A stretch of 64,000 nt of DNA, from NCBI GenBank assembly GCA_965205975.1, contig OZ242195.1:3104001-3168000 (forward strand), written 5' to 3'. This document shows positions 18,240 to 32,897 of the stretch, piece by piece (the stretch's first letter is position 1; the number at the start of each line of letters is the position of its first letter). The DNA is from Candidatus Latescibacterota bacterium (GTDB lineage: Bacteria; Latescibacterota; UBA2968). A model generated the notes under the pieces. It was not told the DNA's origin, did no database searches, and saw only the letters and a program-made list of their open reading frames with translations. The position numbers were made by a program, and so were the translations under genes.

Positions 18240-19436
18240 TTAACCAATCTTTGGAATACCACCGAGCACCCCCGCCCGGTATTTGGGATAGAGACGCGTA
18301 TCGCGCCGGAGACCCTGCACATCTTGTGCGCCATGCACACGGGTTGCGCCACTGTTGTCCTTCTCTACAATAAAAATCTCCTCCTTTTCCAGATTATCGA
18401 GCAGACCGACATTGTGAGAGGAGACAAAAAGCTGTGCACCTGAAGGATTGACCTCTTGAGAGCGGAACCAGCTAAGAATTTCTCCGGCGATATCCACATG
18501 GAGATCGCCATCTATCTCGTCGAGGACCAGAGGAACGCCGCTACGGAGCGCGCCACCGATCCGAGGCAACAGATGAAGCAGGCGTTTCGTTCCACTGGAT
18601 TCCAAGTGTAGGGGGATTGACATATCAAGCCCGTGATGGTCGAAAAACACTTCCTTTTTTTCAGATTGGTCAGAAATAGTTATATCCTGAATTCCCAAAT
18701 CACTGGATCGGATATGGTTTCTAATCCAGGATTCCATATCGGGGTCGCTCTCGAATGTATCCATCACACTTTGGGTCGAAGGTGCCCATCTCTCACGAAG
18801 CACGATATTGGATGACCAAAAAAAATCTTCCATCCATTTTGTAATACGCATCGCCAAGGGCACATTGAGCAGGGCGAGCGTGGTGATCACCGATGTGTCT
18901 GCCCGAACCGCCTGGAGGCGATCATCCCCGGACTTAAGACCAAATTCTTTAGAAACGTATATAGATTTTCCCGGGACACCGCGCTCGAAAAGGCGCCGGG
19001 GGCGGCCCTTTGGAAAGTGGAACAAGGCTTCGTAAGAGAAGAAAGGATCATTACCACTGCATGCCACCTCTAACTCGTACCGGAACAACTGATGGACCTC
19101 GCCCAGCCAATCTGCTTCGAATTCCAGGCAAAATCGCGTCGGCTCATTTCTGGTTTCCTTGGAAAAAAAGGAAAAAAAGGTCTTGATCGGGCGGGTCCTC
19201 TCAGTGGGTGATGGGAATAAGGTGGCCAAGGCAGTAGCGATCAGCGCACTGAGCAATGTTGACTTACCCGATCCATTGGGGCCTATGAGCACGACCACAG
19301 AAGGAAGCCGGATATCCGGCTTTGCTGTGCTCCTTCGGAACCGCGGCAGGTCGGGGGCAGTGCCCGGAATACGCAGGTCAAGAACGACTTCTTCGCGGAC
19401 CGAATGGAAATTAGATATAGAAAATTTATGAATCAT
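18240..19436 (-). CDS. AAA_21 ATPase (RloA/AbiEii-like), no RloB partner downstream
   Basis: Walker A GPNGSGKS, ESSGTKR, LVLDEID..LH, QLFVSSHN, and C-terminal YRAGVLGGIP. Confidence 0.85.
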   Translation of the reverse strand: MIHKFSISNFHSVREEVVLDLRIPGTAPDLPRFRRSTAKPDIRLPSVVVLIGPNGSGKSTLLSALIATALATLFPSPTERTRPIKTFFSFFSKETRNEPTRFCLEFEADWLGEVHQLFRYELEVACSGNDPFFSYEALFHFPKGRPRRLFERGVPGKSIYVSKEFGLKSGDDRLQAVRADTSVITTLALLNVPLAMRITKWMEDFFWSSNIVLRERWAPSTQSVMDTFESDPDMESWIRNHIRSSDLGIQDITISDQSEKKEVFFDHHGLDMSIPLHLESSGTKRLLHLLPRIGGALRSGVPLVLDEIDGDLHVDIAGEILSWFRSQEVNPSGAQLFVSSHNVGLLDNLEKEEIFIVEKDNSGATRVHGAQDVQGLRRDTRLYPKYRAGVLGGIPKIG

Positions 19437-19556: not shown

Positions 19557-22500
19557 TTAAACTCGAGCAGCGTTATAGACCTCCTTGAGCAATGCGTCCA
19601 TGATGAAATCGCGCAGAGCTTTGTCAGACATAAAATCGTTCACAATCTTCTGGTTTCTGCCCTGCCGTTGAACAAATGCCTTCATCACCTCGGGTTCAAA
19701 AACCTGCTTAAACTGATCAATGGAATTGGCCTGAGCCTGTTCCGCAAGACGTGAATTTCGCGCCATATCGCCTGAAATCTGATCAAATAGCAACTTATCC
19801 TCATCCGTCCAACTGGTGCCAAACCGCTCGTTAATCACTTCAATAATAGATGATAGCGGTGTGGTACGGTCGTCTTTGACCTTTGCCGTACCAACATCAC
19901 CCACGCCCTGCACAAAATCTTTGTCCCCCACCTCCAATGCCCCGCTACCAGAAAATGTCATCTCGTTGCGATAGTGCGAAAGCGCAACTTCGTCGTCGAG
20001 TTCCAACATGCCCTCACCCAAACGGCGAGGCAGCTTGGTGAACAAATGCCGCGAGTATGCATAGAGCTTCTCCAGTTCGGTATCCTGCCATTCAATAATC
20101 TGACTCAAAAAGCCATACAGCCGTATAAAGCTCTGCAAGGTACTTTTGAAAATCTCGCCTTCTTCCGTGTATGCGTCCCCACCCGAACCCGGGACACCGT
20201 AAGATTGCTTGAATCGCTCCACAGCAGGATCGACCCATTTGTTGAGTTGCCCGTGATCATGCCTTGTTCGAAGTGATTGGAGCTTGAAATAAGTCCTGGC
20301 AAATTCCTCAATCTCCTCATCGCGTAACACGGGTTCGCTTTTCAGTCTTGCATCCAGCGTATAGAGATGATTGGGATCGGTTGGTTCATCGATCTCCGTC
20401 TGTTTGTAATACGGCTTGAACGCCTCTTTGATCTCATCGATCTCATTGGCAAAATCAAGCACAAATGTATCCACCTTCCCGCCTGCTGTGCGGTTGAGCC
20501 GCGACAAAGTCTGAACAGCTTTCAGGTCTGCAAGCCGCTTATCGACAAACATCGTATGCAACAGAGGTTGATCAAAACCAGTCTGATACTTCTCCGCCAC
20601 AATCAATATCTGATATTCGGGCGTAGCAAAATGGGCGGGCAATTCTCGTTCACTGATGCCGTTCATGCTCGCCTCTGTGTAATGCTTATCCTCGACATCT
20701 GGATCGACAACAGTTCCTGAAAATGCCACAAGCGTTTTGAGATCGGTATATCCTCTCGCCTCGATATATTTGTCAAAAGCCTGTTTGTAGCGCACCGCGT
20801 GTAACCGCGAGCGCGTAACAACCATCGCTTTCGCATTGCCATTGATCTTCTTGCGCGTAAAAGCCCGAAAATGCTCAACCATAATTTCCGTCTTCTGCGC
20901 GATATTGTGCGGATGCAAACTCATAAACCGGGCAATAGCCCGCTTCGCCTTGCTCTCATCCACCTCGGGATCGTCTTCAATCGCTTTGGACAATTTGTAA
21001 TACGTCCTGTACGTGGTATAATGCTTGAGCACATCGTGGATAAAGCCTTCTTCGATACCCTGACGCATAGCGTAAAGATGGAATGGCTGCGGATTGCCCT
21101 CTGCATCGCGCACGCCAAACATTTCGAGCGTACGGTGTTTGGGCGTAGCCGTAAAAGCGTAAAAATTGATATTCGGCTGTGGTCCCCGGCGTTTGGCCTC
21201 CGCAAGAATCAAATCTTCCATATCGGGCGGATCTTCTCCCTCAGCCTCCTCAGCCTCTGCTTGCTCAAGCCCACCCAACACACCGCGCAAATTGCTCGCA
21301 CTTCGACCACCCTGGCTGCTATGAGCCTCATCCACAATCACCGCGAATGTCCTGTCTGACAGATCTTCCACCTTACCCATCAAAAAAGAGAATTTTTGCA
21401 GCGTCGTAATGATGATCTTTGTTCCCTTATTGAGTTCATCGGCCAGATCACTCGAATTGCGATCCTCATCAATCTTGACAACCACGCCCTGCTTGTGTTC
21501 GATCTGATAAATATTATCCTGCAACTGCTTATCCAGATTGCGCCTGTCGGAAACAACCACAACCGAATTAAAAATAGGCGCGTCCGCATCATCGTGGATA
21601 CTGGCAAGCTGATGGGCAAGCCACGAAATCGTATTGGTCTTACCCGACCCGGCACTGTGCTGAATCAGATGTGTGCCCACACCTTTGGCTCTGGTATCTG
21701 CGATCAGATTGCGAACAGCGGTAAGCTGGTGATAGCGGGGAAAAATGAGGGTTTCTTCAGTGGTAGTTTTGCGCGTGGTGACGTCGGTACTTTTTTCCAC
21801 ATGAAGGTGGATAAATCTGTGGATAATATCCAGCCAACTATCGCGCTGCCAGATTTCTTCCCAGAGATACCCAGTCTTGTATCCCGTCTCATACTGGTGA
21901 TCGTCTGGATTGCCCTTGCCACCTTTGTTACCCGTGTTAAAAGGTAGGAAGAAAGTCTTATCACCCGAAAGCCGCGTAGTCATATACACGTCATCGGTAT
22001 CGACGGCAAAATGCACCAGCGCACGTTTTTTGAACTGGATAAGGGGGGTTCTGACGGTGGGAACACGGTCCTTGATATATTGCTGAATAGCGTGACCCGT
22101 ACGCTGCCCTGTAAAAGCGTTTTTGAGTTCAACCGTAGCAATGGGCAGGCCATTGAGCGACAAGAGCATATCTATCGAATTATTTCTATCCACATCATAA
22201 CGCACCTGTCGCATCACCGTGAGACGATTCTGATTATAGCGTTTTTCCGTTTCGATATTCAGACGAGTCGGCGGACGAAAATACGCCAGATGCAGATGTT
22301 GCCCCCGGTCGCGCACGCCATTCCGCACCACATCGAGCAATCCGCGCTTATCACACTCAGAGGCAATCCGCTTGACGACCGCCTCCTCCACCGCGTTGCC
22401 ATAGCTCCTTTTGAGCGCGTCCATAGTATCGGACTGCGTCTCATTGAGAAACGCGAGCAACGTGTGTTTGTCCAGACCGAGTGCAGGATCAAACTGGCGA

Positions 22501-22589
22501 TTATCGGCTTTGGCATATCCAGCGCGATCTACCAGCCACGCCTCAATCGCGTCCTCAAAGTCTTTTTCAGATGTGGGTTTGCGTGTCAT
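19557..22589 (-). CDS. hsdR: Type I restriction enzyme R subunit
   Basis: Nuclease motif IDMLLSLNGLPIATVELKN; helicase motifs QHSAGSGKT, DEAH, FTATP, QTLSRLNR. Confidence 0.96.
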   Translation of the reverse strand: MTRKPTSEKDFEDAIEAWLVDRAGYAKADNRQFDPALGLDKHTLLAFLNETQSDTMDALKRSYGNAVEEAVVKRIASECDKRGLLDVVRNGVRDRGQHLHLAYFRPPTRLNIETEKRYNQNRLTVMRQVRYDVDRNNSIDMLLSLNGLPIATVELKNAFTGQRTGHAIQQYIKDRVPTVRTPLIQFKKRALVHFAVDTDDVYMTTRLSGDKTFFLPFNTGNKGGKGNPDDHQYETGYKTGYLWEEIWQRDSWLDIIHRFIHLHVEKSTDVTTRKTTTEETLIFPRYHQLTAVRNLIADTRAKGVGTHLIQHSAGSGKTNTISWLAHQLASIHDDADAPIFNSVVVVSDRRNLDKQLQDNIYQIEHKQGVVVKIDEDRNSSDLADELNKGTKIIITTLQKFSFLMGKVEDLSDRTFAVIVDEAHSSQGGRSASNLRGVLGGLEQAEAEEAEGEDPPDMEDLILAEAKRRGPQPNINFYAFTATPKHRTLEMFGVRDAEGNPQPFHLYAMRQGIEEGFIHDVLKHYTTYRTYYKLSKAIEDDPEVDESKAKRAIARFMSLHPHNIAQKTEIMVEHFRAFTRKKINGNAKAMVVTRSRLHAVRYKQAFDKYIEARGYTDLKTLVAFSGTVVDPDVEDKHYTEASMNGISERELPAHFATPEYQILIVAEKYQTGFDQPLLHTMFVDKRLADLKAVQTLSRLNRTAGGKVDTFVLDFANEIDEIKEAFKPYYKQTEIDEPTDPNHLYTLDARLKSEPVLRDEEIEEFARTYFKLQSLRTRHDHGQLNKWVDPAVERFKQSYGVPGSGGDAYTEEGEIFKSTLQSFIRLYGFLSQIIEWQDTELEKLYAYSRHLFTKLPRRLGEGMLELDDEVALSHYRNEMTFSGSGALEVGDKDFVQGVGDVGTAKVKDDRTTPLSSIIEVINERFGTSWTDEDKLLFDQISGDMARNSRLAEQAQANSIDQFKQVFEPEVMKAFVQRQGRNQKIVNDFMSDKALRDFIMDALLKEVYNAARV

Positions 22590-23214: not shown

Positions 23215-23249
23215 TGGGAATACCTCGTGATAGAATGATTATCGGTTTT

Positions 23250-23426
23250 CTATTCTTGGTCTTTCGGCGACGTTTCTGATGACTTTCGCTCAACGGGAAT
23301 ATCTGCCATTTTTTTTATAATTTCACGCACCTGGGGACTGGCAAGCAATTCATCTGCTTTGACATACTGACCGCCCCTTGGGGTTACGTATATCTTCAGT
23401 CCTTCTTCTGATGTGTTCTTAGACAT
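23250..23426 (-). CDS. 58-aa hypothetical protein (copy 1)
   Basis: MSKNTSEEGLKIYVTPRGGQYVKADELLASPQVREIIKKM...; AGGAGGGG RBS; same-length paralog at 23973-24149. Confidence 0.7.
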   Translation of the reverse strand: MSKNTSEEGLKIYVTPRGGQYVKADELLASPQVREIIKKMADIPVERKSSETSPKDQE

Positions 23427-23463
23427 GGATGGCCCCTCCTGAAGTTCGATGAACAAAGTCCGG

Positions 23464-23913
23464 TCAGTCAGAATCCGAAACGAAAAAGAAATTAATTGCC
23501 TTAAAGACATCTTGATCTAATTGCTTCATAACCAATGCATAGAAATCAAACTCTGTCTCCACCATCAGGTCGTCCTGGTCTTCTGGCACAGCTACGACAA
23601 TGAGGTTCTCAGCGGTATCAATGGAGATTTGCACATTCCAATTCAACTCGGAGGCAGCAGCCTCAACAACAGAGCGCACTTGACCCCAGGCGACGCGAAC
23701 AGGCACAGGATGTAGATGTGACCACGCGGCGTCTTCCTCTGGACGATCCCAGTCTTCGGCAAGTGCGGCTTCACTGAGCAATGCCGTTTCAGGACTATCT
23801 CGCTCATCATCAAGAATCGTCACATAAGCCCGTCGTGGTTTTGACAACTGGATAGGCTGTAATAACTGCACATTGCCCTGTTCATCAATCGTAGCTTCAA
23901 TGGTTTGTCGCAT
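23464..23913 (-). CDS. Chimeric protein: antitoxin-like N-terminus fused to a HEPN-partner C-terminal domain
   Basis: N-terminus MRQTIEATIDEQG...LLSEAALAEDWDRPEEDAAWSHL resembles small TA antitoxins; the C-terminus is nearly identical to that of 28463-29059. Confidence 0.65.
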   Translation of the reverse strand: MRQTIEATIDEQGNVQLLQPIQLSKPRRAYVTILDDERDSPETALLSEAALAEDWDRPEEDAAWSHLHPVPVRVAWGQVRSVVEAAASELNWNVQISIDTAENLIVVAVPEDQDDLMVETEFDFYALVMKQLDQDVFKAINFFFVSDSD

Positions 23914-23972
23914 TTTTGACGCCTTGGTCCTGTCCTGATTCTGTAACTGAATCTCGAATGATTATCGGTTTT

Positions 23973-24149
23973 CTATCCGCGGTCTTTTGGCGACATGTCT
24001 GATGATTTTCGCTCAATAGAAATTTGCGTCATTTTTTTAATTGCTTTACGTACCTTGGGACTCTTGAGGACCTCATCTGCTTTAACATATCTTGCCCCCC
24101 TTGGGGTTACATATATCTTTGGCCCTTCTTCTAATGAGTTCTTGGACAT
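23973..24149 (-). CDS. 58-aa hypothetical protein (copy 2; not in ORF track)
   Basis: My translation: MSKNSLEEGPKIYVTPRGARYVKADEVLKSPKVRKAIKKMTQISIERKSSDMSPKDRG*; AAGGAG RBS. Confidence 0.7.
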   Translation of the reverse strand: MSKNSLEEGPKIYVTPRGARYVKADEVLKSPKVRKAIKKMTQISIERKSSDMSPKDRG

Positions 24150-24223
24150 AGGATTGTGCTCCTTAATAAATGCTGCCGTTTTCTGGATCGTTAGAAATCG
24201 TCAGGTATAAAATGTCTTCTTGC

Positions 24224-26035
24224 TCATATCTCTTCCGGAAAAATGATTCCCCGCCAAAACTTTGGTGGCAATGGAGATTGATGTTTAATACAGGCAAGAA
24301 TTAAAGCTGCACGAGGAACCTCAATAAATGCCTTTGGTGGAAATTTTTCTCTACACTGTCTCACGAAATCTTGAATTTTTTCAGCCAAAGACCGTTGATC
24401 ATTTGGATGAAATTCAAAATTATGAGTCATAATTGCTGTCCCATCAGTAACAGGTTCACGAAGAATCCGCACGTCCCAATCATCCGGAGGTATCCATCCA
24501 AGCAAATCTATTTTATTATTATCAAGAGGCTGTCCATCTGCACCTACTCCCTTTACAATCTGCTCAAAGTACCGCTCTAATAACTCATCTCGCTGGCTTT
24601 CTTCAAGCGAAAAGCACAATTCTAAAATCATCAGCAGAAGATATGAACTCCCATCAGTAAATTCTGGGGGACGTTTAGAAGTGGCTGCAAACTCAGCGAC
24701 TAAATCCGTCCTGTTTCGGGCCTCAATGAATGGTAGCCTATTCATTTCTACTCTTCTTGTAAGCAGACAATTTTCCAGACTTCCGAGCCATTCGTACATC
24801 TCGTTCTGGCCTTTTACCTGCCATAACATCAACCATACCAAAAATAACTCAACATGATGAACATCCAACAAGGGCCGCAATGCAGCGGGATTATTATAGA
24901 AAAACTCACCAAGCCATTCGACATTTCGCTTCAAATGCTTTTTGAAATTTTCCCTGTGCTTACCCTGGGTGTCCCAGAATTGCTGTGGGGCATAGTTCAA
25001 TATTCCCAACCGACCCAGATGCCAATAAGCAATATAAGCATCTCGGACTGCTCCCAATTGACCAATATCGCGCCCTCTATCTCTCCCAGCTAATCCGTGT
25101 TCTGTAGTCAAAGCATCCTGTACCGCGAAAAAGTATCTTGTCAATTCCTCGACATAAAAGTTAAGCCAAATATTAGCTACGATGTCCTTTAATTCTTTCG
25201 CTTTCAAATCTCGACAGGTATCCCACAGAGCCAGCATAGCCCATTCAATTAAATCAATCCATCCCGGATAGCTATTGGGCGTTTTTTTTCTGTACTCGTA
25301 GATAATCGTCAGAGCAACGGGCACAAGTTGCAATTTTCGCTTATCTATCGGGGGTTCTAACACCTTACTGAGAAAATATCTCCATTGGGGAACCAATTGA
25401 TTTTCCCATTCTGCAGACCCGAAATCAAAGTCGCCCACTTGCAAACAAATATACTGTAACGCGCTCGATAAGTGCTGTGGCATCAACTCGGGCGAGAGAA
25501 GATTGCTTCTCACCTCTTTTACCAACCTTGTAAGATGCCACCTCTCAAAAGTCAACTTAACACCATCACTCCGCGTTTTTCCGAGAGATTCGGTTAGTCG
25601 TTCAAAAAGTTCAATCCCTGTGTTATCTTCATCTTTATTATATGCGAGTATGATCTTGACCTCCCCTACCGCCTCAAATCCCAATTTCTTTAAATCTATA
25701 GTGGATGCCTTTCGTAACTCTGGGTCAAAATTATGATTTGTCCAGTTGCTATTAGTCAGTGCTTCGTCCTTAAGTACAAAAATGATGAGTTCTTGACTAC
25801 TCTCACTAAGAAAAGCGAGATCAATTCCTAATTCCGCTTCAGTCTTTGTCTTTGGCGTTTCAGGACTCGGTGCCCTAAAAAACGGCAACCGAACCGGTGT
25901 CCAGTTTTTTGCAATAGCCAGATTATAAATTACCCAGTCAAAACCTACTTTAATACCTTTCTTTTCGTCTCTCGTTCTCTCTAACAAACTCGTCAGATAT
26001 TTACTCAAAAAAGGAGTGAGGTCATTACTTTGCAT
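24224..26035 (-). CDS. ~603-aa protein with a putative N-terminal PD-(D/E)xK nuclease domain; candidate defence effector
   Basis: TEAELGIDLAF...ELIIFVLKD resembles a restriction-endonuclease-like core; ATG 26035 overlaps the end of the upstream 649-aa gene; AT-rich. Confidence 0.6.
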   Translation of the reverse strand: MQSNDLTPFLSKYLTSLLERTRDEKKGIKVGFDWVIYNLAIAKNWTPVRLPFFRAPSPETPKTKTEAELGIDLAFLSESSQELIIFVLKDEALTNSNWTNHNFDPELRKASTIDLKKLGFEAVGEVKIILAYNKDEDNTGIELFERLTESLGKTRSDGVKLTFERWHLTRLVKEVRSNLLSPELMPQHLSSALQYICLQVGDFDFGSAEWENQLVPQWRYFLSKVLEPPIDKRKLQLVPVALTIIYEYRKKTPNSYPGWIDLIEWAMLALWDTCRDLKAKELKDIVANIWLNFYVEELTRYFFAVQDALTTEHGLAGRDRGRDIGQLGAVRDAYIAYWHLGRLGILNYAPQQFWDTQGKHRENFKKHLKRNVEWLGEFFYNNPAALRPLLDVHHVELFLVWLMLWQVKGQNEMYEWLGSLENCLLTRRVEMNRLPFIEARNRTDLVAEFAATSKRPPEFTDGSSYLLLMILELCFSLEESQRDELLERYFEQIVKGVGADGQPLDNNKIDLLGWIPPDDWDVRILREPVTDGTAIMTHNFEFHPNDQRSLAEKIQDFVRQCREKFPPKAFIEVPRAALILACIKHQSPLPPKFWRGIIFPEEI

Positions 26036-27974
26036 TTTCCATTTCCTCAGTTTGTAACCGCCGTATATTTTCGGCAGCAATCATTCTCCGCTGTGCCATA
26101 ATCTCTGGCATGAGAACTTCAAGGCGTGGCAATTCCATTTGGTGGGAAAAACGATTCATCGGAAAAGGATCTCCTGGTCCGTCCTGCTCTCCTTGTCCCA
26201 GAACACACACATTGTCCCCATAAATCAGATCTACGCTTGTCAAAAGTTGTGATATCAATGATCGGTCATGAGCACCTTGTGAAACCCGATGTGAAAAATC
26301 TCGGTATCCTTTCTCAGCCGTCTCAACAAAATTTGGGAATTGAAAACTGTTTGCAGGAGAGTTGTGAACTTTCTTCAGATCTTCAAAATAGCCATCTGCT
26401 TTTGCTATGACTCGTTTAAGTAAATCTGATGGCTTTTCCACCTCTTTCCATTTTTTTAAGCACGAACCCGGATAGTTCATTGCCTGTAAGACCATCTCTC
26501 TCTCAAATGCATCCCGCAACTCCCTATCAGATGCATTCCGGAACAATGGCTCTAGAACCTGCAAGAAGTGTGCGATAGCCTCGCCATCAAAAAATGGCTT
26601 TCTGATAAATTCCCACAGTGCCAAGCGCAACTCAGTATTTGATATTTGCTTCATCACTTCATCGGATATTGTTTCAATCTTGATCTGCTCATAGAGAATA
26701 TTTCCCAGTCTTCTAATGGTATTGCTCTTAGAGAAAAGGCAGTCCGTTATAAACTGCGACATACCAACTCTGTCCATTTTTGAGACCAAATGTTCAAACT
26801 CATGATTTCTGAATAATTCGATCAAAGTCTCCGGATTTTTCTCGGCAATTTGCTTTAGAAGTTCGCCAAAATAGCTCGTATTTTCAAACAGCCGGTGAAC
26901 CAAATAACCTTCAACTTCTTTCCATATTCCGGTATATTTTTTTTCTATTGGCTGAATGCCAAGGATGAGCTTATTCGAGTCAGCAGTATCTATCAACTGC
27001 TTATCTCTCCCCTGGTAATCTCGTAATCGAGATACCATATCCACGACACTGAGCTTTGCGTCTGGTGACAATTCAGGTGATACATGTTTGGTCAACCATT
27101 TTAAAATAAAACAGGAAAATTCTTCTTCTATTTGTCCCAAACAAAGACGCCTTACAACATCAAAGGCTTCCTCCTGTTCTTCTTTTGTACCTTCCATCGC
27201 TGCGTCGAGTACCGAACGCAACTCGTCAATGGAAACGCCACCTCTTCCAAAGGTAGTTCTCCACGACCGATAGTAGCAAAGTCGCAATTCTGTTTTTGGG
27301 CCTGTCTTCAGTTCGATATCCCATTTGTTTACTGCTTCTTTAGATATTTTCTCTTCCGTAGATTTTGCACGTAGTACTCCCAGGATAATTGCCGCAAGGT
27401 GCAATCTCGTATCCTTGAGTCCATCGTTGATATATTGTCCGAATACGGTCAAACCAGCAGAGGAGAAATTGAAAGCATAGTTTTCAACCCCTCTAAAAAA
27501 ACTACCGCCCGCTAAATTTCCACTTACTGCGTCTCCAATTCTTAAAAACCAATCAGAAGCAAATACTGCGGGAACTTCGACATGCGCCAAAAACGTCGGT
27601 AATGCACTAATGTAATTCCAAAATGGAAATTCTTTCTCCTTAATCCACAGGTCTAAGAAAGATTCCCTGCTATGCGATGGCACCTGTTGGTACGCCTCGC
27701 CCCAAAGGATACCCATTAGTTGATAGCTCGATTCCTCAAACTCTAAACAAATAGGAATTTTTGAAAGTGTTTCGTAGAATTTATAGCTAACTTTAATCTC
27801 TTCGGGAAAAAGGATATTCAGTAACTCGGCTGCTCGCTCTTTATTTTCTTCGAGATATTGAATTTCTTTTTTTATTTTATCCTTTTTATCTGACAAACGT
27901 GCTTTAATATCATCCTGATCAACCCCCTGAGAAATGGATTGACACATCGCCAATATGTTCGCCAAATGTTTCAT
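26025..27974 (-). CDS. 649-aa hypothetical protein, probably mostly alpha-helical; candidate defence component
   Basis: Long intact ORF with GGAGG RBS, no recognisable motif, coupled to the downstream gene. Confidence 0.75.
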   Translation of the reverse strand: MKHLANILAMCQSISQGVDQDDIKARLSDKKDKIKKEIQYLEENKERAAELLNILFPEEIKVSYKFYETLSKIPICLEFEESSYQLMGILWGEAYQQVPSHSRESFLDLWIKEKEFPFWNYISALPTFLAHVEVPAVFASDWFLRIGDAVSGNLAGGSFFRGVENYAFNFSSAGLTVFGQYINDGLKDTRLHLAAIILGVLRAKSTEEKISKEAVNKWDIELKTGPKTELRLCYYRSWRTTFGRGGVSIDELRSVLDAAMEGTKEEQEEAFDVVRRLCLGQIEEEFSCFILKWLTKHVSPELSPDAKLSVVDMVSRLRDYQGRDKQLIDTADSNKLILGIQPIEKKYTGIWKEVEGYLVHRLFENTSYFGELLKQIAEKNPETLIELFRNHEFEHLVSKMDRVGMSQFITDCLFSKSNTIRRLGNILYEQIKIETISDEVMKQISNTELRLALWEFIRKPFFDGEAIAHFLQVLEPLFRNASDRELRDAFEREMVLQAMNYPGSCLKKWKEVEKPSDLLKRVIAKADGYFEDLKKVHNSPANSFQFPNFVETAEKGYRDFSHRVSQGAHDRSLISQLLTSVDLIYGDNVCVLGQGEQDGPGDPFPMNRFSHQMELPRLEVLMPEIMAQRRMIAAENIRRLQTEEMENAK

Positions 27975-28006
27975 ACGCCGAATTCCTCCATAATTTTCTC
28001 AGCCAT

Positions 28007-28432
28007 TCAAACCTTTCCCACCATTTCCGTAAAGTCTATATTCTGTAAATTTCTGATCTCCGCCTCAACACGTTTTAAAAGTTTCTCGGCGTTACGGGGT
28101 TTTGTAAAGTACCCATCCCAACGACCAACGGGTTCAAGCACGTAATCTGCCTGCTGACGTGCTTCATAAACCCGGCTAAGAATTTCGGCCAACCTGTTTA
28201 AGTCAGAGTTATTTGCCGAAGCCAAAGAATCCTTTAATTTTCCATGATCAATTCGATCATCACGACCATGGGAAGCACTGCCTTCCTGTACGCGTATTTC
28301 AGTTCTGATAGCAAGAAAAAGTGCATAATACGCTCGCCCAACTGCTGTTCTTATGCGAGCTTCTTTGTCAAGGCTACTAGGTCGTATTATTGATCGCCCA
28401 ACTTGGGCGAATAGTACTGGATCAAAACGCAT
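28007..28432 (-). CDS. HEPN-domain protein
   Basis: RTAVGRAYYALF, H-x3-L and RQQADY (R-x4-Y variant of the HEPN motif). Confidence 0.8.
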   Translation of the reverse strand: MRFDPVLFAQVGRSIIRPSSLDKEARIRTAVGRAYYALFLAIRTEIRVQEGSASHGRDDRIDHGKLKDSLASANNSDLNRLAEILSRVYEARQQADYVLEPVGRWDGYFTKPRNAEKLLKRVEAEIRNLQNIDFTEMVGKV

Positions 28433-28462
28433 AATAATTTGAAAGTACGATTAGTCGGAACT

Positions 28463-29059
28463 TTAAAGAAAAAAGAAATTAATCGCCTTGAAAATCTCTT
28501 TACGCAATTGTTTGATAATCAATGAGTAGAAATCAAATTCCGTCTCCACCATCAGGTCGTCCTGGTCCTCTGGTACAACTATTACAATGAGGTTTTCGGC
28601 AGTATCAATGGATATCTCAACATCCCAATTCAACTCTGAAGCGGCTGTCTCAACAACGGCACGCACATAACTCCAGTTGATGTTTACGTCAACAGCCTCG
28701 TCTCTAAATGCCTCCGGTTGATCTTGCAGTGTGTTTAAATGATTCTTTTGGAGATAGTTTATTCCTGATTGCACCTGCCGATCGAACAAGACCTTTCTTT
28801 CTTTTATCTGTTCAGTAAGTGAGTCGGCAGTAATTGGCAGAGAATCGGCTTCCTGCCATAAGTGTGTTTTAGTCTCTTGCAGCGAGGCACTGCTACCTAC
28901 TCGCGCCTGCCTATGGGCAGACACGGTGCCGTGTACCTGCCAGCCAGGATGGTGTATTCGAGTTGGTTCTAATTGGGATAATTTCTGTAACATCCGCTTG
29001 CTACTCCCATATATCTGATAGTATCCAATACAATCGGATGCTATCGCGTGGGTAATCAT
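28463..29059 (-). CDS. Hypothetical HEPN-partner (antitoxin-like) protein
   Basis: Directly upstream of the HEPN gene; acidic C-terminal domain duplicated at 23464-23680; start codon uncertain. Confidence 0.55.
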   Translation of the reverse strand: MITHAIASDCIGYYQIYGSSKRMLQKLSQLEPTRIHHPGWQVHGTVSAHRQARVGSSASLQETKTHLWQEADSLPITADSLTEQIKERKVLFDRQVQSGINYLQKNHLNTLQDQPEAFRDEAVDVNINWSYVRAVVETAASELNWDVEISIDTAENLIVIVVPEDQDDLMVETEFDFYSLIIKQLRKEIFKAINFFFL

Positions 29060-29184
29060 TCTATTCCGGCTTCACAGACAACAGCCTCCATTACGGCCAC
29101 ATCTTACATTGTCTGCACAGGCAGAAGAGGAAAAATTCATTGCTCTATATAAACATAGCGATTCTATGTACATCTTTCAAGGGT

Positions 29185-30534
29185 CTATACTGCGTTCCGC
29201 ACATCAATCTTCCCCGTCACCGCAGCGGAGATCACCACGGTTCGGCGTTCTTTGAGCAGATCAATCGCCGTTTCACATTTTTCAATGAGGGTATCAATCT
29301 TCGCCGTTTCTTGGTTGAGGAATGCGGCGATTTGCTTCTGTTCTTCCAGTGGAGGCAACGGGAGTATGAAATTACTGATGGCATAAGTTCCAAGACCATA
29401 TCGCGTTATGCCATTGGCTCGGGTGGCGAAGAAACTCCTCGCATATCGGGAGTCCATGACTCGCTTCAAATACTCACCGCATGTCCCTTTCTCTGGTCTT
29501 AGCAGGGCTAAGTGATAACCACAGACTACACCTTCTAAATCCTGTGGGACATAAGTAGGTACAGCAATGTCGTTGGGGTCTTCGGAATCCTTTGTGATTA
29601 TTGTGTCCCCTCTTTTCAAAGTGAACTTTCTGATCTGAACATCAGATGCAGTCGCCTTCATAAGGGACAAATCTTCCGTAATTTCTTCGTTGTAATACAC
29701 ATCGGTATAGTTACAAAGCCGCACTTCCTTTTCATTTTCTTTACTCTTCTTATCCACGTTACTTGGCTGAACCGCTGCCACAAACTTCAGCTTTTTTATT
29801 TTCCACTCTATCGGCACCTCTCCCAACCACCCAATCCCACTATCTTTCATCTTCACATTCGGGTTCAATCCTCTGGTAACGGCATGTGAAATGATCGCCT
29901 GCCGCTTTTCCTGAAGCAGTGTGATCAATTGCTCTTGCTTGTCAATGAGGATGTCGGTATTCGTCGTTTCTTTGTCGAGGAATGCGGCGATTTGATTTTG
30001 TTCTTCGAGTGGAGGAAACGGAAGTATGAAATTACTGATGGCATAAGTTCCAAGTCCATATCGCGTTATGCCGTTGGCTCGGGTGGCGAAAACACTTCTC
30101 GCATATTGGGTATCCATAACCCGCTTCAAATACCCACCGCATGTCCCTTTCATAGGTCTTAGCAATGCCAGATGATAGCCGCAAACCACGCCTTCCAAAT
30201 CCTGTGGGACATAAGCTGGAACAGCAATGTCGTTGGGGTCCTCAGAATCCTTTGTAATTATGGTATCTCCGCTTTTCAAAGTAAACTTTCTGATCTGAAC
30301 ATCTGACGCAGTCGCCTTCATAAAGGGCAAATCGGCTGTAATCTCTTCGTTGTAATACACATCGGTATAGTTACAAAGCTGTACTTCCTTTTCATCCTTT
30401 TTGCTCTTCTTATCCACGTTACTCGGCTGAATCCTCGCAACAAACTTCAATTTTTGGGTCGTCCATCCCGCAGGTATTTCTCCCAACCACTCAACCCCAC
30501 TCTCCTTATATTCTGCATACTTCCGAAAGCTCAT
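29185..30534 (-). CDS. hsdS: Type I restriction enzyme specificity subunit with two near-identical TRDs
   Basis: YKESGVEWLGEIP, PPLEEQ twice, AVTRGLNPNVKMKDSG, AAVTGKIDVR; internal DNA repeat with a 660-bp offset. Confidence 0.96.
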   Translation of the reverse strand: MSFRKYAEYKESGVEWLGEIPAGWTTQKLKFVARIQPSNVDKKSKKDEKEVQLCNYTDVYYNEEITADLPFMKATASDVQIRKFTLKSGDTIITKDSEDPNDIAVPAYVPQDLEGVVCGYHLALLRPMKGTCGGYLKRVMDTQYARSVFATRANGITRYGLGTYAISNFILPFPPLEEQNQIAAFLDKETTNTDILIDKQEQLITLLQEKRQAIISHAVTRGLNPNVKMKDSGIGWLGEVPIEWKIKKLKFVAAVQPSNVDKKSKENEKEVRLCNYTDVYYNEEITEDLSLMKATASDVQIRKFTLKRGDTIITKDSEDPNDIAVPTYVPQDLEGVVCGYHLALLRPEKGTCGEYLKRVMDSRYARSFFATRANGITRYGLGTYAISNFILPLPPLEEQKQIAAFLNQETAKIDTLIEKCETAIDLLKERRTVVISAAVTGKIDVRNAV

Positions 30535-30640: not shown

Positions 30641-30820
30641 ATAATTGTGTCAGCAGTGGTGACACTTTTAACGGGTTGAGACGGTCCATGGTAATTGTCT
30701 CGGCGATGCTGAGACTTTTGGCGGCCTGAACACGATCCCCAATAATTGTCGCACCACTGGTGAGACTTTTTGCGAGTTAAACACGAACTACAGTTTGTGT
30801 CACCAGTGGTGACACTTTTT
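30641..30820. repeat. Four-unit, ~50-bp-period array of 19-bp palindromes between hsdM and hsdS
   Basis: Palindromes start at 30647, 30697, 30748 and 30797; each is preceded by TT and followed by TTTT. Confidence 0.85.
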
Positions 30821-30849: not shown

Positions 30850-32897
30850 TCACCCATTCAAAATCCCTCCAACCGTTTCAACAATACCATCCGTCACACC
30901 TTCAATCATTTCAACAATACTATCCGTCACACCTATCAAATCTGCACCAATCTCATCTAACGGACGGGGCGGTTTGAATGTGTAGAAATACCGGTTAAAA
31001 GGAATTTCGTAACCCACTTTTGTCTTGCTGTAATCTATCCAGGCCTCCGGCACATGGGGCTGGATTTCGCGTTCGAAATACGCATCAATATCCTCCCGCA
31101 ACGGCACATTTTCATAATCGCGCAAATCGGGATAGGGTTCTGGTTCTCCCTTGCGATTGGTACAAACATCAGCGGTCTCGTCATACTCCCCCAACGATTG
31201 ATAGATCAACTTCAACTGAGCCGTTATAATATTCACTTGCGCCCCCGTAAAAGCATCCGTAAGAATGCGAATAAATTCATCGCGGTTTTTGTATTTGCAA
31301 TCACCCTCAAGCGTCGCCAGAACCTCGAGAACGCGCTGCTGCTGTTCTTGCGGCAAACGGGCAAAACTCCTCGCCGATTTGAGAATCTCAACGCGATCTT
31401 CACACACCTGAAAATTGCGCTTGAGCGGACGCTCAATGGTAATGCGCTGATACCCGAAATCAACATTGTCAAAAATCTTCACGCGATTCCTGAATAAACC
31501 CTTTTCAGGACATGCCTGCACATCCTCAAAATCGCCAAACAATTGCGTAATCTCCGCGATCTGTCCATCGGAAATCTCCTTGCGCTTGCTACCCAGGCTC
31601 TGGATCATCGCAACGTGAAAATCTGCGGCATTGATCAATTGCACTTTACCCTTGCGCTGCGGCGTCTTCTGATTTGTAATAATCCAGATATAGGTCGCAA
31701 TACCCGTATTGTAAAACATATCCGTAGGCAGGGCTATAATCGCTTCCAAATAATCATTCTCAATAATCCAGCGCCGGATCTCGCTCTCCCCACTGCCCGC
31801 GCTGCCCGTAAAAAGGGGCGATCCATTGAGCACAACAGCCAGACGGGACAAATCGCCATTCTGATTGAACTTCGAAATCATGTGCTGCACAAAAAGCAAA
31901 GAACCATCGCTAACACGCGGAAGCCCTGCGCCAAAGCGTCCCCTATAACCGAGGTGATTGGCTTCGTCCTTAATCTCGGATGCCACCTTCTTCCAATCAA
32001 CTCCAAACGGCGGATTGGACAACATATAGTCAAACTGCTCATCGGGAAGGCCATCTTCTGTAAAACTATTGCCAGGATGAATATTCTTCGCATCTTGTCC
32101 CTTGATCATCATATCTGATTTACAAGTCGCATAACTCTCATCATTCAACTCCTGCCCGTACACAATCAAACTGGCTTCTGGATTGAGTTCCCTGAGATAA
32201 TCCTCCGCAATAGAAAGCATCCCGCCCGTGCCACACGCCGGATCGTACAACTTGCGAATTATACCCCGTTGGGTCAGCGCCGCCTCATCCTCTAAAAAAA
32301 GAAGATTAACCATCAACCGGATAACTTCACGAGGCGTAAAATGCTCGCCAGCCGTCTCATTGCTCTGCTCGGAAAACCTGCGGATGAGTTCTTCAAAAAT
32401 ATATCCCATTTGCAGATTGGAAACGCGATCCGGATGCAAATCCGCCTGTGCAAAACGGCTGACAATCAGATAGAGCAAATTATCCCGGTCGAGCCGCGCA
32501 ATCTGCTCTGGCAGATTAAAACGGTCGATAAAAATATCACGCGCATCATACGAAAACCCGTTAATCATATTATTCAAATTCGCAGCAATATTGTCGGGAT
32601 CGTCCAGCAACCTCTCAAAGGTAAACGGACTTGTATTGTGGAAATTGTTTCCACTCGCCATATTGAGCATAGTCTCGCGCATTGTATCGTCGATATTCTC
32701 AGGCAGAGTTTCCAATTGCGCTGCACAGCGTCTTTCGTCGGCACCAACACGCAATCGAGCCGTCGCAAAACCGTGAACGGTAGCACCACCTTTCCATACT
32801 CCGATTGCTTGTAATTACCCCGCAGAAGTTCCGCAATGGACCAGATAAAACCGATATGTTCACCAAAACTCGCACGGGTACTCGAACTGTTTGTCAT
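30850..32897 (-). pseudogene. hsdM: Type I R-M methyltransferase subunit, frameshifted near 32725
   Basis: The N-terminus [29 protein letters not shown] is in ORF 32574-32897. The remainder (GEHFTPREV, YDPACGTGG, NPPF) is in ORF 30850-32754, a different frame. Real mutation and assembly error cannot be distinguished here. Confidence 0.85.

Follow-up and report, generated by a model that had tools for sequence, protein, structure and literature searches.

A divergent Olokun-like gene pair between hsdS and hsdR of a Latescibacterota type I restriction-modification locus

Two long overlapping genes occupy the hsdS-hsdR interval of a type I restriction-modification (R-M) locus in a Candidatus Latescibacterota genome (GenBank assembly GCA_965205975.1, contig OZ242195.1), raising the question of whether they form an uncharacterised anti-phage system, as a sequence-only reading of this DNA had proposed, a part of the R-M system, or something already named. 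In what follows, the window is the whole stretch of 64,000 nucleotides analysed (contig positions 3,104,001 to 3,168,000), and its relevant features are collected in Table 1. The coordinates confirm two long, intact open reading frames, of 649 and about 603 residues, which overlap by 11 bp as that reading had described, and translational coupling of oloA and oloB through this overlap is likely. The first frame starts at an ATG with GGAGG a short way upstream; the second counts 603 aa from its ATG and 618 aa if an upstream TTG is used, and the alignments of its homologues begin at the ATG, not at the TTG. Both genes are AT-richer than their surroundings, again as described, at 0.410 and 0.418 GC (GC3 0.39) where the window as a whole has 0.485, and hsdR and hsdM, the latter with a putative frameshift at 32720, lie above the pair at 0.496 and 0.474. 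A contig of run X4, from a second sample, covers positions 23868-29392 with one differing base and no gap, so that the reading frames are not an assembly artefact, the independence of this second contig being incomplete because X4 and the best holder run belong to one study. A regular-expression search for the Walker A pattern found none in either protein, in keeping with the missing NTPase motif noted from the sequence, and Pfam, NCBIfam and PHROGs gave no match for either. A promoter scan was uninformative (5 sites vs 11 expected by chance), and the holder sequencing runs listed, which include no RNA run, say nothing on expression.

Table 1 Positions, in the window, of the gene pair, its mapped elements and its R-M context.
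Feature	Position	Strand	Length or basis
hsdR (context)	19557-22589	same strand as pair	Pfam HSDR_N
oloB-like gene	24224-26035	(-)	603 aa; N-terminal PD-(D/E)xK domain, then helical domain
Nuclease-fold domain of OloB, residues ~1-180	25496-26035	(-)	AF2 model, VIA-align
Putative catalytic K89	25769-25771	(-)	conserved position
Putative catalytic D72	25820-25822	(-)	conserved position
Putative catalytic E19	25979-25981	(-)	conserved position
oloA stop / oloB start overlap	26025-26035	(-)	11 bp
oloA-like gene	26025-27974	(-)	649 aa; all-helical HEAT/ARM-like solenoid, C-terminal segment conserved
Second predicted docking segment, OloA residues 617-631	26082-26126	(-)	complex prediction
Main predicted docking segment, OloA residues 529-560, including NSPANSF motif	26295-26390	(-)	complex prediction
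Small HEPN-like gene (context), directly upstream of pair	28007-28432	(-)	Pfam HEPN E 3e-4, below cut-off
hsdS (context)	29185-30534	(-)	Pfam Methylase_S

Among the 5027 PADLOC models, the sole matches of the pair at E<=0.1 are those of Olokun (PDLC03925/PDLC03926, OloA + OloB): OloA for the first gene (E 5.7e-14, 50 bits, profile positions 198-583 of 596, 65%) and OloB for the second (E 5.4e-25, 86 bits, positions 36-554 of 556, 93%), in Olokun's gene order and judged by the profile scores of the HMM library only. Because these scores are low, homology was checked further by profile-profile comparison. A profile of 109 OloB-like homologues, searched against 1.84 billion representatives, yielded, on one side, full-length proteins of the window's clade at 449 bits or more and, on the other, proteins of 530-570 aa at 156 bits or less; the latter are termed canonical-like OloB here, a label for the group reached by the window-clade profile and not for the founding sequences. 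The OloB model scores 286-550 bits in all 19 canonical-like proteins scanned and 45-112 bits in all 13 window-clade members scanned, where it is the only match, as is the OloA model in all seven clade OloA homologues scanned. With hhalign, window-clade OloB aligns to 18 canonical-like OloB at 100% probability (E 3e-53, 545 columns), and the window's OloA clade to four canonical OloA at 99.7% (E 1e-25, 507 columns). These four (311-417 bits) come from plasmid-borne pairs that score highly on both models (311-718 bits); the oloA-oloB order is the same in 4/4 of the canonical plasmid loci opened, with a 4-bp overlap in three. The distance is considerable: pairwise identity between the window OloB and the 18 canonical-like OloB is 19-25%, and in an unrooted tree of 80 rows (no outgroup) a long branch with an SH-aLRT of 100 sets these 18 apart. 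The pair almost certainly belongs to the Olokun (OloA-OloB) family, as a divergent member. It is not a new kind of defence; it is a distant branch of one already named. The sequence-only reading had itself held that a strong hit to a named system would remove the novelty, and its description of the pair as uncharacterised therefore falls, distant though both matches are.

What the second gene encodes can be seen in the AF2 model of the 603-aa OloB (pLDDT 90), in which an N-terminal alpha/beta domain is followed by a helical domain. The best structural matches of the N-terminal domain are the catalytic domains of restriction endonucleases; VIA-align pairs it with the BspD6I small subunit (Z 9.4, rmsd 4.3, 141 aligned), FokI (Z 9.4, rmsd 3.3, 138 aligned) and AF1548 (Z 9.1, rmsd 2.8, 110 aligned). 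The E-x-G-I-D...F-V-L-K segment picked out earlier is present as E68-x-G70-I-D72...F86-V-L-K89. Since E19, D72 and K89 are invariant in 109/109 clade OloB rows and found in 26, 26 and 25 of the 26 rows of a two-clade OloB alignment, the nuclease motif read from the sequence holds, and the restriction-endonuclease fold of the model agrees with the N-terminal PD-(D/E)xK nuclease expected there. Catalytic roles are assigned to the three residues by position, E19 being the likely further acidic residue of the motif. Clade-specific inserts interrupt the domain after E19 and before D72, and Mrr_cat matches at residues 16-89 and 34-86 in canonical homologues place the nuclease at the N terminus there too. 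Foldseek, which the earlier reading had named as a check, gave no match for the OloB model at E<=0.001, and the nuclease fold came from VIA-align instead; the ESM Atlas gave no named cluster and, as its one lead, Mrr_cat at 12%.

The helical partner protein anticipated from the sequence appears in the AF2 model of the 649-aa OloA as an all-helical solenoid (pLDDT 87) with a less ordered C-terminal segment. Its fold matches are generic and of HEAT/ARM type (TM at most 0.31; best Z 13.6, in a range common for helical repeats), and the AP-3 and AP-4 chains among them (Z 10.4 and 9.1) do not stand above other HEAT proteins. A 1:1 complex of full OloB and OloA residues 262-649 passes our prediction test with a score of 0.81 vs 0.01 for the best of three controls, the mark being one reached by 116/157 solved pairs and 2/215 mismatched pairs; runs share at least 91% of contacts, with a partner pLDDT of at least 77. 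In the predicted interface, OloA 529-560 and 617-631 contact residues 204-454 of OloB, its helical domain, and the nuclease domain and the greater part of the OloA solenoid stay free. OloA residues E614, P616, R617 and P623, which neighbour the second docking segment, are conserved, and where the window protein has the predicted SPANSF docking motif, the aligned stretch of canonical OloA differs in sequence. A search of the PDB by sequence gave nothing for OloB and two weak designed-protein matches for OloA, and since no solved structure is related in sequence, a pass owed to memorised structures is less likely. The prediction thus supports OloA-OloB binding, as a model of the contact and not as a demonstration of it.

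The two genes also travel together. An OloA-like gene lies upstream, on the same strand, in 57 of the 59 genomic loci with an OloB-like gene, and the two loci without it end at a contig edge; 47 of the 57 homologous pairs overlap or sit within 71 nt, and at four loci (L039, L041, L048 and L053) a gene is in pieces. The co-occurrence check named earlier reveals a conserved two-gene module. Uncultured PVC, Ignavibacteria and Latescibacterota account for most genomes with the window's Olokun clade: host labels are mainly Verrucomicrobiota, Planctomycetota, Ignavibacteriota, Acidobacteriota and Latescibacterota, with one archaeon, and the window's nearest tree rows are labelled Latescibacterota. 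The distribution is patchy, with an oloB-like gene in 1/20 other genomes of the genus and 1/60 other related genomes. None of 122 pattern matches in viral contigs is a relative. The defence setting foreseen for such genes is visible as an enrichment among nearest neighbours, of which 27/101 match PADLOC at E<=1e-10 (some of them generic domains) vs 12/95 control genes (Fisher p 0.019), and 20 vs 5 at 1e-30 (Fisher p 0.0025), the controls coming from one genome, that of the window, unmatched to the loci, and related loci not being independent. The matches include Gabija, Lamassu, Azaca, Mokosh, AbiE, SoFIC and R-M genes.

How such a pair might act is suggested by PfOlokun, for which the accessible part of a preprint describes a 2:2 complex of ~278 kDa with an adaptin-like OloA; it degrades the DNA of T7, SEC17 and SPO1 but neither E. 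coli nor plasmid DNA, introduces nicks into plasmid and is active only at 1 uM (bioRxiv 10.1101/2025.07.10.664194). Our own analysis adds the homology of both genes, their order and linkage and the putative active-site residues, together with predicted folds and a predicted OloA-OloB contact. As a plausible mechanism, the C-terminal segment of OloA would anchor it to the OloB helical domain, and two OloA-OloB units would combine, as in PfOlokun, into a 2:2 assembly in which the two nuclease domains meet. The N-terminal PD-(D/E)xK domain of OloB would then nick or cut invading phage DNA, and by analogy with PfOlokun some phage DNAs may be cleaved selectively, without a methylase or an ATPase. 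In the weakest step of this scheme, the free N-terminal solenoid of OloA might sense a phage protein or DNA structure and license cutting. Very likely, the divergent Olokun pair works as an anti-phage nuclease complex.

The position of the pair invites a different reading, in which it serves the type I R-M system as an accessory, e.g. by guarding HsdRMS as a reserve nuclease, much like PrrC or Ec48-type guards. The flanking hsdS and hsdR on the same strand would fit this role, and the sequence-only reading, which placed the pair inside the R-M operon, was right about the position. Homologues of hsdR, hsdS or hsdM from the window occur in the fetched flanks of only 4/59 loci, and the R-M setting is therefore incidental. 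Twelve genomes of the same genus have a close hsdR, and in ten of them (G014 holds the pair itself and G007 is split over contigs, so these two were left out) we compared the region upstream of that gene; all ten carry differing cargo there (putAbiC, PIN, HATPase-methyltransferase pairs, transposases) and no oloAB; the rarity of oloB-like genes in the genus (1/20) likewise speaks against an R-M function. Because linkage to hsdRMS is not conserved (4/59; 0/10 same-genus loci), we reject the accessory role, which we hold to be extremely improbable. The small HEPN-like gene, considered as a third component, was set aside as well, with a homologue near the pair in just 3/59 loci. The cassette is bordered by imperfect direct repeats of two small genes, which is consistent with acquisition by recombination, and oloAB is probably mobile cargo that landed in a variable hsdS-hsdR interval. 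A selfish toxin-antitoxin or anti-plasmid module, in which OloA restrains OloB as a nuclease toxin and no specific anti-phage role exists, would likewise account for the coupled two-gene layout, the tight predicted complex, the patchy distribution and the nicking of plasmid DNA by PfOlokun. According to the accessible part of the preprint, however, every operon tested, with Olokun among the selected systems, protected against at least one phage (bioRxiv 10.1101/2025.07.10.664194), and we regard a purely selfish module as very unlikely; moreover, a toxin-antitoxin arrangement and defence are compatible, not exclusive.

Within the anti-phage reading it can still be asked whether the window's clade works as other Olokun members do, a question raised by its variants. 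In two Opitutus loci, OloA is fused to a HipA-like kinase, a form absent from the window. A third gene, encoding 216-244 aa, stands between oloA and oloB in 8/59 loci, and in metagenomes in 16 of 18 loci (the other two cut by contig ends), a set with repeats of its own and some overlap with the genome loci. Its proteins have no PADLOC match (4/8 scanned) and no Pfam match (8/8 scanned), keep the E..D..K pattern as a stand-alone nuclease-like domain and, by hhalign, are closer to the nuclease domain of canonical OloB (99.1%) than to that of their own neighbouring OloB (45.5%). The three-gene loci are more novel than the window's pair itself; our literature search, with most subscription papers outside it, found one mechanistic paper on Olokun and no description of a three-gene or HipA-fused form. 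In the tree, three-gene and two-gene loci are mixed on the branches near the window; its figure of a single change for the three-gene label, which leaves ungrouped rows out of account, was set aside. The third-gene proteins, this mixing, the extra nuclease-domain inserts and an invariant K-D-E motif could all reflect a mechanistically distinct Olokun subtype, with the window as its two-gene state and a third protein that may pair with OloB. Against this, the window lacks the third gene, as do 49/57 pairs, OloB E19, D72 and K89 are retained in 8/8 three-gene loci, and divergence by itself does not show another mechanism; we think a distinct subtype unlikely. The fuller version of this idea is equally doubtful: a third subunit paired with the OloB nuclease in a two-subunit cutting centre of BspD6I type, a fused HipA-like kinase in other loci, and OloA as a general docking scaffold for interchangeable effectors. 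With natural two-gene, three-gene and kinase-fused members side by side, the clade lends itself to comparisons of how OloA controls the nuclease. The analysis widens Olokun to a divergent clade whose phyla are mostly uncultured, a modest advance, and supplies a testable residue-level map of interface and active site for a system for which we found no solved structure.

Placed beside known systems, OloB residues ~1-185 share the fold of FokI, BspD6I and Mrr-type catalytic domains (Z 9.1-9.4), whereas the OloB pair travels without a cognate methylase and has its nuclease fused to a helical domain, with a solenoid partner; the shared fold shows no function. Aditi (DitA/DitB), which the accessible part of its source presents as two large genes without recognisable Pfam domains (bioRxiv 10.1101/2022.05.11.491447), resembles the window pair in just this respect. 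It had been named as a system to exclude, and indeed no Dit model matched at E<=0.1 in PADLOC, both genes matching Olokun instead (the presence of Dit models in the library was inferred from that of Olo, Zac, Mko and SoFic). Olokun is attributed to Millman et al. 2022 in the accessible part of PMC12926258 and grouped with the systems of that paper in the accessible parts of two reviews; the name is absent from the accessible part of the paper's bioRxiv main text. The preprint, as far as it is accessible, classes Olokun as a PD-(D/E)XK system and has OloA bind an 'N-terminal helical domain' of OloB (bioRxiv 10.1101/2025.07.10.664194), whereas in the window and in canonical homologues it is the nuclease that is N-terminal. 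Further differences set the window pair apart: its proteins are ~40-70 aa longer than most, with inserts in the nuclease domain, its clade has V-x-K-D-E where many canonical members have Q-x-K-x-G, its docking motif differs, and it belongs to a separate clade with three-gene and HipA-fused forms. In common with Olokun it has the oloA-oloB order, overlapping gene ends and near full-length homology of both proteins, as well as a helical-repeat partner, a PD-(D/E)xK nuclease with conserved E/D/K, the lack of a Walker A motif and a predicted direct complex.

The interval between hsdS and hsdR is a cargo hotspot within the window's genus: in several of the ten relatives, all lacking oloAB (L063-L072), it is occupied by unannotated genes, for example one encoding a 1789-aa protein with an HTH_upstream_double_PIN match (L065:5433-10799). 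In the window, the HEPN-oloA-oloB cassette in this interval is bracketed by two imperfect direct repeats, the first corresponding to the C-terminal domain common to a 198-aa and a 149-aa ORF and the second to a 58-aa ORF in two copies. In relatives, the repeat units are present singly, ahead of hsdR. The HEPN-like gene and the preceding 198-aa ORF, to which no family was assigned, possibly form a small toxin-antitoxin pair; together they also adjoin oloAB at three other loci of the OloB-like gene (L001, L016 and L026). Two same-genus genomes (L065 and L068) have a HEPN homologue and lack oloAB.

Within the same R-M locus, hsdM is interrupted by a one-base gap relative to all five relatives compared. 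In contigs from four of four sequencing runs, an extra base is found at the break, in part of the depth only, and the break is either a real frameshift or an assembly error.

Coordinates of features in the window and at OloB-like, metagenome and plasmid loci
Feature	Location	Detail
Direct repeat 1	window 23455-23689 / 28442-28676	79%
Direct repeat 2	window 23233-23426 / 23956-24149	78%
HEPN-like gene + 198-aa ORF	window 28007-29059	
Apparent hsdM pieces	window 32574-32897 and 30850-32754	split at ~32720
25-nt partly palindromic repeat	window 30645-30819	four copies, ~50-nt spacing, between hsdM and hsdS
AAA_21 / AbiLi-like ATPase	window 18240-19436	immediately downstream of hsdR
HTH-HipA-like kinase-OloA fusion	L037:4639-8004	
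HTH-HipA-like kinase-OloA fusion	L046:4606-7980	
Canonical oloA and oloB with intervening ISAs1 element	L111:724-5740	
Third gene	L004:7292-8011	
Third gene	L010:7334-7984	
Third gene	L011:7256-7981	
Third gene	L012:4672-5376	
Third gene	L027:7258-7977	
Third gene	L031:7314-8000	
Third gene	L040:5454-6155	
Third gene	L044:7277-8011	
Third gene	L093-L110	metagenome loci

Beyond the window, the OloA N-terminus is joined in frame to an HTH and a HipA-like kinase in two Opitutus genomes (1121 and 1124 aa), and the OloB partners of both fusions cluster with each other in the tree. On a Tolypothrix plasmid, canonical oloA and oloB are separated by an ISAs1 element.

An additional gene, absent from the window, is placed between oloA and oloB at other loci as a dedicated third gene. 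Its product consists of a stand-alone PD-(D/E)xK-like domain followed by a helical tail. Loci carrying it represent a candidate three-gene Olokun subtype, in which the third protein is more similar to the nuclease domain of canonical OloB than to the OloB encoded next door.
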